Positions 10,008 through 47,941 of a stretch of 64,000 nt of DNA are shown piece after piece. The notes under the pieces were generated by a model. The model saw nothing but the letters and a program-made list of their open reading frames with translations. It ran no database searches and was not told where the DNA came from. A program made the translations under genes and the position numbers. The stretch is from Octopus vulgaris (taxonomy: Eukaryota). The stretch covers positions 49,414,001-49,478,000 of the forward strand of contig OX597826.1 of NCBI GenBank assembly GCA_951406725.2, read 5' to 3'. Each line of letters starts with the position of its first letter. The first letter of the stretch is position 1.

Positions 10008-10249
10008 GTTATATGCATAAGGGATCACACGCACTTGCATACACACATTATTTTTTTATTTTTATTAAAGAAACTAAAGTTAAACCGTTAATGTTGCCAA
10101 ATGTTCCAAGTCGTCAGAAACTCGTGGTATAAAGGGCATTTATTAACTAACAGGATATATGTGTAAGCCTTTATAATCCGGAATTACATGACAAATATGA
10201 TTGGTGCACAGAGAGAATATCATTGCTGAAATGAACGTGTGACATGCAC

Positions 10250-12110
10250 CCTCTTTGGTCTTTTCGGCACCGTCATTCATATCTGTCGGCACACCTCTTT
10301 GATCTCTGTCGGCACCCTCTTTGATCACTTTCGGCACGCTCGTTGATCTCTGTCGGCACGCTCTTTGATGTCTGTCGGCACGCTCTTTGATCTATGTCGG
10401 CACCCTCTTTGATCTCTTTCGGCACACCACTTTGATGTCTGTCTGCACACTCTTTGATCTCTGTCGGCACACCTCTTTGATCTCTATCGACACGCTCTTT
10501 GATCCCTGTCGGCACCCTCTTTGATCCCTGTCGGCACCCTCTTTGATCCCTGTCGGCACGCTCTTGATCTCTGTCGGCATACCTCTTTGATGTCTGTCGG
10601 CACGCTCTTTGATCTCTGTCGGCACACCTCTTTGATGTCTGTCGGCACGCTCTTTGATCTCTGTCGACACACCTCTTTGATGTTTGTCGGCACGCTCTTT
10701 GATCTCTGTCGACACGCTCTTTGATACCTGTCGGCACCCTCTTTGATCCCTGTCGGCACGCTCTTGATCTCTGTCGGCACACCTCTTTGATGTCTGTCGG
10801 TACGCTCTTTGATATCTGTCGGCACACCTCTTTGATCTCTGTCGGCACGCTCTTTGATCTCTGTTGGCACCCTCTTTGATCCCTGTCGGCACCCTCTTTG
10901 ATCCCTGTCGGCACGCTCTTTGATCTCTGTCGACACACCTCTTTGATGTCTGTCGGCACGCTCTTTGATCTCTGTCGACACGCTCTTTGATACCTGTCGG
11001 CACCCTCTTTGATCCCTGTCGGCACGCTCTTGATCTCTGTCGGCACACCTCTTTGATGTCTGTCGGTACGCTCTTTGATCTCTGTCGGCACACCTCTTTG
11101 ATCTCTGTCGGCACGCTCTTTGATCTCTGTTGGCACCCTCTTTGATCTCTGTCGGCACCCTCTTTGATTCCTGTCGGCACCCTCTTTGATCCCTGTCGAC
11201 ACACCTCTTTGATATCTGTCGGCACCCTCTTTGATCTCTTTCGGCACGCTCTTTGATCTCTGTCAACACGCTCTTTGATCTCTGTCGGCACCCTCTTTGA
11301 TCTCTTTCGGCACACCACTTTGATGTCTGTCGGCGCGCTCTTTGATCTCTGTCGGCACCCTCTTTGATCTCTGTCGGCACACCTCTTTGATCTCTGTCGA
11401 CACGCTCTTTGATCCCTGTCGGCACGCTCTTTGATCCCTGTCGGCACGCTCTTGATCTCTGTCGGCACACCTCTTTGATGTCTGTCGGCACGCTCTTTGA
11501 TCTCTGTCGGCACACCTCTTTGATGTCTGACGGCACGCTCTTTGATCTCTGTCGACACACCTCTTTGATGTCTGTCGGCACGCTCTTTGATCTCTGTCGG
11601 CACACCTCTTTGATCTCTGTCGGCACTCTCTTTGATCTCTGTCGGCACCCTCTTTGATCTCTGTCGACACCCTCTTTGATCTCTTTCGGCACGCTCTTTG
11701 ATCTCTGTCGGCACCCTCTTTGATCTCTTTCGGCATGCTCTTTGATCTCTATCGGCACCCTCTTTGATCTCTGTCGGCACCCTCTTTGATCTCTTTCGGC
11801 GGGCTTTTTGATCCATGTCGACACGCTCTTTGATCTCTGTCGGCGCGCTCTTTGATCTTTGTCGGCACGCTTTTTGATCTCTGTCGACACGCTCTTTGAT
11901 CTCTGTCGACACGCTCTTTGATCTCTTTCGGCATGCTCTTTGATCTCTGTCGACACGCTCTTTGATCTCTGTCGGCACCCTCTTTGATCTCTTTCGGCAC
12001 GCTCTTTGATCTCTGTCGGCACGCTCTTTGATCTCTGTCGGCACGCTCTTTGATCTCTGTCGGCACGCTTTTTGATCTCTGTCGGCACCCTCTTTGATCT
12101 ATTTCGGCAT
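10250..12110. repeat. Minisatellite, ~22-bp unit (20/22/24-bp variants), ~1.86 kb
   Basis: Consensus CTCTTTGATCTCTGTCGGCAC(G/C) repeated ~80 times; generates the spurious long minus-strand ORFs. Confidence 0.97.
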
Positions 12111-12758: not shown

Positions 12759-14056
12759 ATTTGGCTCAAAAGCAAATAGCAAGGCCATGTAGGGAGACAT
12801 GGAGTTAAGTACAGGGTGGTGTTCATGTAAAGAGTTCAGGCCACTTGAGGTCAAGGGAGGCTTTGAACAAAGCGGTCGTCGGCATCTTCACCATCTCGTC
12901 TGGCAGCTTGTTCCACGGATCCGCAACCCGGACGGAGAAAGCTCCTCTCCTTCGATTGAGATGAAATCGTCGCAGGTAGAGCTTTTCGGAATGACCCCGC
13001 AGCCGACGCTCTGGAGCAGGAGTGAAGAGCAGCTCTTTCGAGAGGTTACACTTTCCGCTTATGATGTTGTGGGCGAGAATGAGATCACCACGGCGGCGGC
13101 GTTTTTCAAGAGAATAAAGGTCGAGCGTCCTCAGCCTTTCTTCGTAGGACAAATTTTTGAGACCATGAATCATGCGGGTAGCCAGCCTCTGGACTCTTTC
13201 GAGATGCTGTATGTCTTTGAGGAGATAAGGAGAAGAGGCTTGAATCCCGTACTCCAATATGGGTCTCACCAGCGTGACATAGAGTGGTAGGAATATGGCT
13301 GCTGTGAGCATTCCGAATGACCGTCGAATCAAGAACAGAATTCCGCGTGCTTTGTTGGCAGCATGGACGCACTGGGCCGAAGGCGAAAAGGAGGAATCCA
13401 CCAAGATACCCAGGTCCTTTACCTGATCGGTCCTCTCCAGCAGCAGACGACCCGGCTCGAAATCAAGTTGAGTTGCAGGAGGAGAGCCAACAGGCAGATG
13501 ACAGCACTTTGACACGTTCAGACACAGGTCCCATTCGTTAGACCACTTCCAAATTTGGTGGAGGCATCGACGAAGATCCTCTATATCACCGCGAGGAGCG
13601 ACCAGTTTGATATCGTCGGCAAATAGAAGAGTGTGTTGCGTGAGGTCGTCGGGCAAGTCATTTATGAAGACTAAGAACAACAAGGGCCCAAGCACTGAAC
13701 CTTGAGGCACGCCACTGCTCGCACTGGAGACGTCGGAACGCGAACCATTAACTTGGACTTGGAAGGAGCGATCTGAGTGGAAGGCACCAACCTATCGTAC
13801 AATATCCGGATGGAAACTATATGCTTGAAGCTTGACAAGTAATAGGCGGTGGTTTACCGAGTCAAAAGCTTTGGCAAAGTCCAATAAAACGATGTCAACA
13901 GCATCACTATCATCGAGGATGCGCGTCACCAATTCTTCCATTACCAGTTAGTTGGTCAAGCATGATCTCTTCGGCACGAAGCCGTGTTGGGAATCAGAGA
14001 TAGAGGCTGTGTTTTGGAGGTGGAGCATCATACTTTTCTTAGGGATGGTTTCGAAC
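12724..14056 (-). mobile_element. 5'-truncated CR1-clade LINE (reverse transcriptase C-terminal half) with (TAAC)n tail
   Basis: SQHGFVPKRSCLTN*...LDFAKAFDSVNH...GVPQGSVLGPLLFLVFINDLP...LFADDIKL...LVRPILEY...LERVQRLATR...RRRRGDLI...FSVRVADPWNKLP; in-frame stops upstream of 13710; tail (GTTA)n on + at 12724-12758. Confidence 0.95.
12823..13710 (-). pseudogene. Open RT segment of the CR1 LINE (295 aa)
   Basis: ORF track; PQG and FADD RT motifs. Confidence 0.9.
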
Positions 14057-44783: not shown

Positions 44784-45011
44784 AGGTTGAAAAGGAACAC
44801 ACGAGTTGATATATATAAGGAAAATAAGACAAGGTAGAAATTGCTAAAATAACTTTATCATGAAGAACATTTTAGTAACGGTTTCAATCTTTGCGACATT
44901 TTAGGGTGAAAGACTATTATATTATGGAAAATTAAATGAAATGCTTTTTTAAAATATTTCCATAGTTTTCAAATGCAAGTGTATGCAAGTGCGTCCGAAT
45001 ATATATATATA

Positions 45012-45269
45012 TATATATTAGAAAAATTGAGGTAATCAGATCAGATGGTTCATATTTGTAGATATTTATTTATATATTACATTTTTTACATATATATCAT
45101 ATCATTCGGATTAGCGCTTGCTCCCATTCTAGTGGGTTTTCAAATCCCACTAGAATGGGAGCAAGCGCTAATCGAATGATATGATATATATGTAAAAAAT
45201 GTAATATATAAATAAATATCTACAAATATGAACCATCTGATCTGATTACCTCAATTTTTCTAATATATA
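45012..45269. repeat. Fold-back palindrome, ~125-bp arms, in (TA)n
   Basis: 45012-45136 vs 45146-45269, one 1-nt indel visible. Confidence 0.93.
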
Positions 45270-45296
45270 ATACCTGTACATCATCTCCAAACCTTC

Positions 45297-45344
<48 letters not shown>

Positions 45345-45625
45345 TTAATAAGGGTGAGAGAATTAGATACTAATTTAATAGTATGTCCATTCAACACCAA
45401 GTGGCCCAGTGCCTCGAGAAACCTGGATTATTATAATATTTTATAATATATTATAATATTATTTTATACAAAAATAAATATAAGAGAATGGTCACTATGT
45501 GGCTCATTCTAGCACTAGAAAATCCAAAAGGTTTCAACCACAAAAATACATGTTTCACATGAAAGCCAGTACGATTGTTAGCTCACACGAACAGGGCAAA
45601 TAAAAAATAACAAAAATACAGATTA

Positions 45626-45706
45626 TTTTGGGACAATTGTTTCGCTATTAATGAATTAAATGCAATTTTACTTACAAAAAACCCACTTGTAGCTCCTCAG
45701 CCAAAA
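45626..45706 (-). ncRNA. Type I hammerhead ribozyme
   Basis: Reverse complement of 46252-46332. Confidence 0.88.
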
Positions 45707-46251
45707 CTATCTGGATGAAATCCACTCAATCACACGCCAGATTTTACCATAACGATAAATACACGTGTGGTTCAATTGATTACATCCGACGTTATAATTA
45801 AAATGCCCCTACTAACAGCGCGCCAAACTTTCACGGAAACAAATACTACATTTAGAAATAAATGTAGCATGTATTTTTGTGGTTGAAACCTTTTGGATTT
45901 TCTAGTGCTAGAATGAGCCACATAGTGACCATTCTCTTATATTTATTTTTGTATAAAATAATATTATAATATATTATAAAATATTATAATAATCCAGGTT
46001 TCTCGAGGCACTGGGCCACTTGGTGTTGAATGGACATACTATTAAATTAGTATCTAATTCTCTCACCCTTATTAATTAATTATAATTATGCTACATTTAT
46101 TTCTAAATGTAGTATTTGTTTCCGTGAAAGTTTGGCGCGCTGTTAGTAGGGGCATTTGAATTATAACGTCGGATGTAATCAATTGAACCACACGTGTATT
46201 TATCGTTATGGTAAAATCTGGCATGTGATTGAGTGGATTTCATCCAGATAG

Positions 46252-46332
46252 TTTTGGCTGAGGAGCTACAAGTGGGTTTTTTGTAAGTAAAATTGCATTT
46301 AATTCATTAATAGCGAAACAATTGTCCCAAAA
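46252..46332 (+). ncRNA. Type I hammerhead ribozyme, canonical core, predicted cut after C46326
   Basis: UUUUGG-CUGAGGA-GCUA...(42 nt)...UAGC-GAAA-CAAUU-GUC-CCAAAA; palindromic stem III ACAAUUGU. Confidence 0.9.
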
Positions 46333-46789
46333 TAATCTGTATTTTTGTTATTTTTTATTTGCCCTGTTCGTGTGAGCTAACAATCGTACTGGCTTTCATG
46401 TGAAACATGTATTTTTGTGGTTGAAACCTTTTGGATTTTCTAGTGCTAGAATGAGCCACATAGTGACCATTCTCTTATATTTATTTTTGTATAAAATAAT
46501 ATTATAATATATTATAAAATATTATAATAATCCAGGTTTCTCGAGGCACTGGGCCACTTGGTGTTGAATGGACATACTATTAAATTAGTATCTAATTCTC
46601 TCACCCTTATTAATTAATTATAATTATGCTACATTTATTTCTAAATGTAGTATTTGTTTCCGTGAAAGTTTGGCGCGCTGTTAGTAGGGGCATTTGAATT
46701 ATAACGTCGGATGTAATCAATTGAACCACACGTGTATTTATCGTTATGGTAAAATCTGGCATGTGATTGAGTGGATTTCATCCAGATAG

Positions 46790-46870
46790 TTTTGGCTGAG
46801 GAGCTACAAGTGGGTTTTTTGTAAGTAAAATTGCATTTAATTCATTAATAGCGAAACAATTGTCCCAAAA
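46790..46870 (+). ncRNA. Type I hammerhead ribozyme, predicted cut after C46864
   Basis: Identical to 46252-46332, 538 nt downstream. Confidence 0.9.
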
Positions 46871-47051
46871 TAATCTGTATTTTTGTTATTTTTTATTTGC
46901 CCTGTTCGTGTGAGCTAACAATCGTACTGGCTTTCATGTGAAACATGTATTTTTGTGGTTGAAACCTTTTGGATTTTCTAGTGCTAGAATGAGCCACATA
47001 GTGACCATTCTCTTATATTTATTATTTTATTTTTATATATATATATATATA

Positions 47052-47941
47052 TACTAGCTGAATAGCCCGTAGTTGCTGGGCAATTTTTACAATAGAATGT
47101 CTTATATAAATTTTTGTTTATTCCATGTCAGAGCATGCCTTCCTCGACAGATTTGTACAATTTTTCGCGAAGGTAAATTCTTTGACGATCTTTTTCCTTT
47201 ATAAATTATTTACTTGTCTGTTCGACTGTTTCACATGACTTTATTCATTAAAACTTCAGATGCTTTTACAGATTTAATGATCGTAATGCTTTGCTTTCGT
47301 TTGTTTGATAACATTACCTCCTCGTAATGATTTTGCTTTCATTTTGTGATAGACAGCTATCAAGCAGAAAATGCCAGCTTCCAAATCCTGTTTTCTGATT
47401 AGGTAAAATTAATTAAATTTTAAACCTCAATAACATTTTCCTGCAATTTTTCTGGAACAAATGGATAACAATATCGGATTTAAGGTGGGAAAATTATCTT
47501 AATATACCAAATTTGAAAATTTTGACGTAATTATAAAATTTCACAGCAACAAGGAAGACAGATAGACAGATAGACAGTAATAGCACGTGATATACCCCCC
47601 CACACACACACACACACATACACAGAAACACAGAGACACAAACACACACTCATGCACACACTGAAACATATACACACGAGTTTAAAATGGTGTATAGTAG
47701 ATGTATGTATGTATGTATGTATGTATGTATGTATGTATGTATGTATGAATGTATGTATGTATGTATGTATGTATGTATGTATGTATGTATGTATGTAGAT
47801 GTATGTCTGTGTGTGTGTGTGTCTGTGTGTGAGTGTTTCTTTGCGACGGACAGCAGAAAACCACTTACCCCGCTCTCCTTAAAGCTACGTATTCTTCACA
47901 CTCACCTTTCTTTCCCTTACCCGGCGTTTTAAAGTTACTTA

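Follow-up and report, generated by a model that had tools for sequence, protein, structure and literature searches.

An ORF-less, hammerhead-bearing tandem insertion in the Octopus vulgaris genome and its probable copying by a Penelope-like reverse transcriptase

What kind of element left the insertion at 45336-47023 of the window, the whole stretch of 64,000 nucleotides of Octopus vulgaris contig OX597826.1 that was analysed, and by what machinery was it copied into its place? On the evidence presented below, we consider it rather probable that the locus is a young insertion of an ORF-less family of non-LTR retrozymes, likely self-cleaving and circularising, whose RNA would have been copied into (TA)n by a Penelope-like reverse transcriptase (RT).

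Anatomy and relatives of the insertion

The insertion is composed of two arms. The direct arm (45868-47023, plus strand) is a perfect tandem of period 538 with zero mismatches, in which 2.15 identical units run from unit position 80 to 159, and its 3' end corresponds to the first of two fixed ends (unit ~160); the period-538 match breaks first at 45867 and at 46486/47024. The inverted arm (45336-45870, minus strand) comprises 535 nt and runs from unit position 300 across the cut site to 296, where its 3' end corresponds to the second fixed end (unit ~296); two positions, 45735 and 45800, set it apart from the plus copies. The arms meet head to head in a 3-nt overlap, CAT (45868-45870; plus unit 80-82, minus unit 300-302), and both insertion ends run into (TA)n, with a target run at 45299-45339 on the left and an A/T-rich joint with a (TA)n run at 47024-47052 on the right. 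The initial annotation had described about 2.15 plus units, about one inverted unit differing at about two sites, a CAT joint and a (TA)n setting, and this layout is matched base for base. Its predicted cuts, after 46326 and 46864, also agree with the recomputed coordinates and would release exactly one 538-nt monomer (46327-46864, plus strand); the cut-to-cut unit has a GC content of 31.6%, and its RNA is predicted to be highly self-paired.

Once the unit is circularised, its longest frames starting with Met have only 23 aa in the sense and 50 aa in the antisense direction, in keeping with the earlier description of the unit as ORF-less, and a search of the unit for a tRNA and for an LTR pair found neither. 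With the plus units identical and the nearest other sampled locus 6 substitutions away from the 45336-47023 insertion, the label 'young', given to it at the outset, is a fair one. A separate head-to-head inverted repeat at 45010-45298, with arms of ~130 nt, shares the same (TA)n run; it carries a 33-nt extension on one arm only and looks like a truncated insertion of a Penelope-like element (PLE) with the classic tail. The window also contains an 84-copy 22-bp minisatellite (10246-12109) and, at 12823-13791, a frame of 322 aa for the C-terminal part of a LINE-type RT.

Relatives of the unit were sought in the 2.8-Gb assembly of 227 contigs. Exact matches to a 21-mer that spans the cut site number 2,148 in the genome, versus 0 for its reversed control, so that the recurrence of the 21-mer is not due to chance. 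Searching with the unit yielded 1,583 candidates, of which 39 were scored, and the 51 best full-length copies match at 94–100%; elsewhere in the genome, arrays reach ~13 units. A motif search revealed three sister families, each with more than 1,000 candidates, which are colinear with the unit at 62–82% identity and measure 491–538 nt. Locus L291, considered as a possible 'parent' end, turned out to represent a fifth ORF-less family, more distant from the unit of the present locus. All five related families are ORF-less circular permutations.

Non-LTR retrozymes have been described as ORF-less type I hammerhead tandems, with linear and circular RNA detected in coral, mussel and axolotl, and PLEs have been considered strong candidates for their mobilisation (PMC7229834). 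Like them, the unit forms an ORF-less, low-GC tandem (the class lies below 45%) and has one type I hammerhead, a 6-bp stem I, a weak palindromic stem III and a self-paired monomer, and PLEs are present in the same genome. By such sequence-level criteria the element at 45336-47023, known here from DNA alone, fits a non-LTR retrozyme, and the term 'retrozyme-like' used in the initial annotation is borne out by a dispersed, ORF-less, low-GC tandem with a type I hammerhead. The companion term 'replicon', if taken to mean RNA-to-RNA replication, finds no support, as the opposite strand of the unit has no hammerhead core: a viroid-like ribozyme in both polarities was looked for, and no CUGANGA occurs on the antisense strand.

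The unit differs from the retrozymes described in 2020 (PMC7229834) in exceeding their 150–450 bp, in its 50-nt stem II and in having no detectable parent pseudo-LTR. However, its size, put forward earlier as a novelty, is not one, since 538 nt falls inside the range of 51–972 bp reported for non-LTR retrozyme families (mean of 650 bp in ray-finned fish; bioRxiv 10.64898/2026.07.22.740005). The same report links Xenopus retrozymes to PLE pseudo-LTRs and describes cleavage in vitro of one of nine dimers. Inverted arms and two fixed ends are features of the unit family, while the words 'inverted' and 'target site' are absent from the available text of PMC7229834; 'tail', cephalopods and molluscs are absent from the available text of bioRxiv 10.64898/2026.07.22.740005, where no mollusc was sampled. 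Like plant LTR retrozymes and hammerhead viroids, the unit would be a non-coding structured RNA, released by a hammerhead and with a circular intermediate proposed; unlike plant LTR retrozymes, it has a type I rather than a type III hammerhead and is a simple tandem with no LTR pair with PBS/PPT. A literature search of main texts, with paper supplements, Repbase and Dfam outside its scope, found no paper on a cephalopod retrozyme, and the giant squid genome paper, in its available text, merely counts 235 hammerhead matches.

The hammerhead and the fold of the unit

Every unit presents the same order of motifs, namely stem I (UUUUGG/CCAAAA), CUGAGGA, a 50-nt stem II, GAAA, ACAAUUGU and GUC, with GAAA-CAAUUG-UC terminating at 46326 and 46864. 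The first type I hammerhead (46252-46332, plus strand; predicted cut after 46326) consists of stem I at 46252-46257/46327-46332, CUGAGGA at 46258-46264, an extended stem II at 46265-46314, GAAA, and a palindromic stem III at 46318-46325. The second (46790-46870, plus strand; CUGAGGA at 46796, predicted cut after 46864) is identical to it, and the inverted arm carries a type I hammerhead at 45626-45706 on the minus strand that mirrors 46252-46332 (CUGAGGA at 45694-45700, predicted cut after 45632). The motif had been called fully canonical at first; this applies to the present family and one sister, whereas two other families (15 of 38 aligned rows) show U.U, not G-C, as the basal pair of stem II, and stem II itself is a 50-nt extended hairpin. 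The length of stem II is probably the reason why Rfam gave no hammerhead match in the window at the gathering score, with just hairpin-type matches to the neighbouring palindrome at E values up to 10.

When the whole plus arm was folded, stems I and II formed with a probability of 0.96–1.0 and the monomeric 2-bp stem III with a probability of 0.01, while the active fold is predicted to become the one of minimum energy once an 8-bp stem III is provided in trans. This combination of a weak monomeric stem III and an 8-bp stem III formed in trans matches the dimer-dependent layout that is usual for metazoan type I hammerheads (PMC4209133).

Conservation was assessed in an alignment for which 51 hammerheads were picked and 13 excluded (wrong register, truncation or redundancy), leaving 38 from four families. 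C3, G5, A6, G8, A9 and GAAA are invariant, double-sided changes occur in all six stem I pairs (6/6), and pairing holds in 91.5% of cells versus 35–43% with the partners slid, a comparison in which relatedness inflates the shuffle control. The alignment fold of 12 units reached −126.7 versus −49.6 ± 5.9 for 25 column shuffles, and −99.9 for the antisense; for the circular monomer, z values of −3.9 to −7.4 were predicted in four families (20 shuffles each). In the conserved fold, long helices pair unit 21-81 with 329-379, and stem I joins both ends of the monomer; in four families these long helices, which place the monomer ends side by side, show covariation. Two conserved hairpins on the plus strand, unit 122-147 (46986-47011) and unit 234-279 (46560-46605), are located just 5' of the first and the second fixed end, respectively. 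Judged from the alignment, the hammerhead core and stems are under selection, and it is quite likely that the ribozyme is active in vivo.

Several other short motifs were noted in the unit. Promoter-like words, which we take to be E2F-, CHR- and E-box-like, are not invariant and are sited within paired stems, and for these reasons no promoter is claimed. The apical region of stem II (46285-46290) keeps GURAGU, the consensus of a 5' splice site, in each of the five unit families as well as in two termini of Hydra-clade PLEs (L290 and L293). Near unit 117, a pyrimidine-rich AG is likewise common, and an intron overlapping the hammerhead is known for Drosophila Penelope (PMC4209133). An unpaired U1.7 (46333), seven bases past the cut, is retained in three of four families, and an A lies just before the 3' strand of stem II, in the CA/AA internal loop of this stem; the two may be candidates for a Hoogsteen contact of the kind that speeds hammerhead cleavage (PMC11875169).

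Insertion ends and the Penelope partner

The ends of the insertions were analysed in a sample of 33, namely all those to which the first 100 matches of the pattern on contig C1 belong; shorter insertions are missed by this sample, since it requires an intact cut site. All 33 insertions end near unit 160 or 296, nearly all of them into (TA)n. Ten of the single-arm insertions (n = 17) use the first site and seven the second, and the other 16 of the 33 are inverted, each having one arm per site, head to head (16/16), with a junction overlap of 0–6 nt in 14 of 16 cases. Both fixed end sites lie in A/U-rich linkers just 3' of the conserved hairpins, and the distance between them, that is, the tail, is ~135 nt in the unit family.

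Insertions of PLEs are recognised by an inverted copy truncated at its 5' end and by a tail confined to one end (bioRxiv 10.1101/2021.04.23.441226; PMC3846280). This tail has been attributed to two internal start sites of the RT, both strands being nicked and extended (PMC11167929). The insertions of the unit show the marks of Penelope: a partial tandem, an inverted copy, one site per arm and a microsatellite target. As in Poseidon PAc of Anolis (PMC11167929), the target is A/T-rich, both strands appear to have been cut and extended, and two internal RT starts would define the tail; unlike the unit, with its ~135 nt, PAc has a tail of 30–40 bp, and it is autonomous. From these marks, Penelope-type mobilisation of the unit family is very probable, and the copying mode suggested in the initial annotation gains support from the two fixed 3' ends, the inverted arm and the (TA)n target. 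This insertion anatomy, with two fixed ends and one site per arm, is what is new here.

The unit contains no ORF for an RT with a GIY-YIG nuclease, and a TBLASTN comparison with four PLE proteins found none joined to it in 175 family loci, a set that includes overlapping loci. PLE fragments are present in 12 of the 175 loci; one of them, a Hydra fragment that lies upstream of an array on the same strand and was considered as an ORF junction, was inspected in full and turned out to be an independent insertion with an end of its own. Across the 5' flanks of 21 non-inverted insertions only common repeats recur, with no shared coding body. For the PLE families sampled, the absence of an ORF junction in the 175 loci and of a coding body in the flanks makes it unlikely that the unit is a truncated PLE end, and in no sampled locus is it merely the end of an ORF-bearing element.

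Two kinds of young intact PLEs, Neptune-type and Hydra-clade, occur in the genome. One family, which by its motifs we take to belong to the Neptune-type clade, has a 781-aa RT-nuclease frame, a ~40-nt tail, its own minimal hammerhead and 4-nt stem III palindromes; considered as the partner, it was rejected, having no similarity to the unit beyond an A/T palindrome. The families of the Hydra clade have frames of 838–962 aa with DKT, YRDD, CxCx5C and a C-terminal nuclease. Their elements show two ends in (TA)n, ~85–150 nt apart, and head-to-head inverted arms, and their stems III are 6-nt palindromes, with CAAUUG in Hydra-1 as in the unit. The 6-nt stem III and the two (TA)n ends of Hydra elements, versus 4 nt in the Neptune-type family, favour the Hydra clade, and by this behaviour only it is reasonably likely to be the partner of the unit family.

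Four unit families were compared with seven termini (5 Hydra and 2 Neptune-type). No significant homology was found between the unit and the five Hydra termini (z of −1.0 to 3.1), and the sole high score (z of 8.2), obtained with a Neptune-type end, stems from a palindrome of A/T only; short end motifs that appeared by eye to be common to the unit and Hydra were no better than dinucleotide shuffles. Like the Hydra-clade PLEs described previously (bioRxiv 10.1101/2021.04.23.441226), the unit family has a (TA)n target and a 3'-end hammerhead with a 6-nt palindromic stem III, as well as two 3' ends and head-to-head inverted arms; unlike them, the unit has no RT/nuclease ORF and closes as a 535-nt tandem. 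Non-autonomous elements of Chlamys, such as MRC1, resemble the 3' end of their autonomous partner and are mostly without hammerheads (bioRxiv 10.1101/2021.04.23.441226), whereas the unit family has a conserved hammerhead and no detectable homology to a partner.

The PLEs of this genome have some further features. Several intact Hydra-clade families (Hydra-1: L237, L234 and L298; Hydra-2/3: L281-L293) have Asn-rich inserts, and the Hydra-clade families here exceed the described length of <3 kb and have 3' UTRs of 2–4 kb. About 2,000 short-stem-II hammerheads with the same CAAUUG stem III were also found. Given identical stems III in Hydra and retrozyme, one could speculate that hybrid dimers are formed. 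Loci L061-L070 represent an abundant two-ORF PLE (479 + 781 aa) with a minimal hammerhead having a U3-A8 core variant, and a CCGAAGA hammerhead core was found in one D-type subfamily and in other PLEs.

Template of copying and competing explanations

In only 10 genomic copies is unit position 1 preceded by a base different from C, which indicates that the RT almost always crosses the cut junction, and thus that the template would be a circle or an uncleaved multimer. Divergence was calculated for 82 cut-to-cut units from 34 loci; the mean number of substitutions is 1.5 within an arm (139 pairs), 0.45 between arms (29 pairs) and 21.2 between loci (3,153 pairs, minimum 0). The two arms of a 10-unit inverted insertion are identical. 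The 1.5 differences within arms versus 21 between loci favour rolling-circle copying of one monomer. However, units of the same locus are all closer to each other than to any other locus in just 41 of 63 units. Ten arrays of at least three units contain 28 variable sites; when the family allele is used for polarisation, 23 of these are private, and derived alleles at the other five are common to part of the array. Moreover, a derived A at unit 435 is present in both plus units of the 45336-47023 insertion and absent from its minus arm. These sites argue against the pure version of the scheme, since one circle copied once cannot give them, and they need later conversion or more than one template. 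Taking both sets of observations into account, a circle would probably have been the usual template.

The 10 copies with a non-C base consist of three point mutants, one internal deletion and six with an arm start exactly at the cut. The last figure compares with three arm starts among nine matches at a control position (p = 0.33, with the intact-copy count of the control word not included), so the piling up of single 5' ends at the cut is not significant. In three of five inverted cut-start loci both arms begin within 3 nt of the cut, versus 0 of 16 unselected inverted loci (closest 5 nt), the 3-nt cut-off having been chosen after the data were seen and arm starts being generally close (within 18 nt in 6 of 16 inverted loci). 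At one locus the arms start at the cut after crossing the junction, as from a linear oligomer. These cases are a hint that the RNA may be cut in vivo at the predicted site and that linear cut RNA may be an occasional template. Contigs of three sequencing runs, putatively of RNA, span much of the unit; they may hold DNA and are without strand, end or circle information.

The observed family, anatomy, two fixed 3' ends and head-to-head arms could be accounted for by the following mechanism. The hammerhead strand of a tandem copy would be transcribed, and stems I and II would form. Two hammerheads would pair via the palindromic ACAAUUGU, giving an 8-bp stem III, and cleave after GUC, and the resulting 538-nt monomers, their ends held by stem I, would be ligated. 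A Penelope-like protein with RT and GIY-YIG domains, most probably from the Hydra clade, would nick both (TA)n strands and prime from each nick at the internal RNA sites unit ~160 and ~296. How far each RT circles the template would vary (2.15 and 0.99 turns in the present case), and both cDNAs would be fused head to head at a short microhomology.

The same Penelope-mobilised family could also have been copied from a linear, partly uncleaved multimer, with arrays homogenised by local duplication or gene conversion, the hammerhead only trimming 5' ends and circles arising as a by-product. This would account for the derived alleles common to part of an array (5/28 sites and unit 435) and for the arms beginning at the cut, in one case after junction crossing. 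It would also be in line with the PAc system in vitro, where hammerhead cleavage is dispensable and uncleaved RNA is the main Poseidon substrate (PMC11167929), and with the local amplification of terminal sequences that has been proposed (bioRxiv 10.64898/2026.07.22.740005). Nevertheless, divergence within arrays should then accumulate, yet it is 1.5 versus 21 between loci; the 10-unit inverted insertion has identical arms, most array-variable sites are private, and the long end-joining helices covary across four families. Overall, copying from a linear multimer appears unlikely, though it deserves serious consideration.

It is considerably less probable that the unit is a mere pseudo-LTR, or the truncated 3' end of an unsampled autonomous PLE, with occasional local tandem growth. 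Its ends, tail and inversion are the same as those of PLEs, pseudo-LTRs bear type I hammerheads with a palindromic stem III (PMC4209133), and matches to PLE termini are reported for about 24 of the 57 retrozyme families of Xenopus (bioRxiv 10.64898/2026.07.22.740005). However, what lies upstream of the 3' ends is either more units (up to ~13) or an unrelated flank, with no common coding body in the 21 5' flanks and no ORF junction in the 175 loci; in addition, the five related families are all ORF-less circular permutations, and the seven sampled PLE termini have no homology to the unit beyond the A/T palindrome. Finally, an assembly artefact or a neutral satellite with a relic hammerhead is highly improbable: homopolymer length does differ among units, as could be expected in such a case, but the same layout and the same two ends recur at independent loci on many contigs, inversion joints are located at many unit positions, in contigs of an independent run too, and the core and stems appear to be under selection.

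A wider version of the retrozyme explanation is offered more tentatively. At least five ORF-less RNA circles of ~490–550 nt could be long-lived parasites of the Hydra clade without resemblance to a parent pseudo-LTR, and their insertions could result from rolling-circle reverse transcription of a single circle from two fixed starts, on both nicked (TA)n strands, with rare stops exactly at the ribozyme cut. If this is true, the family would provide direct genomic evidence for the proposed circle-templated retrozyme/PLE mobilisation, and the same genome would contain both the substrate and an intact enzyme.

PLEs have already been named as the likely mobiliser on the basis of co-occurrence and terminal homology; here, the insertion ends bear the PLE signature, the arrays seem to have arisen from one monomer in a single event, and the genome also encodes intact candidate enzymes. 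The role of the PLE hammerhead and of the circle as an RT template could be addressed by direct assay with a short natural substrate, and the repeat content of the genome gains thousands of hammerhead-bearing units missed by Rfam models. The retrozyme class is already known, and the junction and array evidence for PLE-driven, probably circle-templated insertion is beyond routine. One family-A insertion (L027:1336-2422) is located outside (TA)n, between direct repeats of 9 bp, a length that matches the target-site duplications of PLEs.
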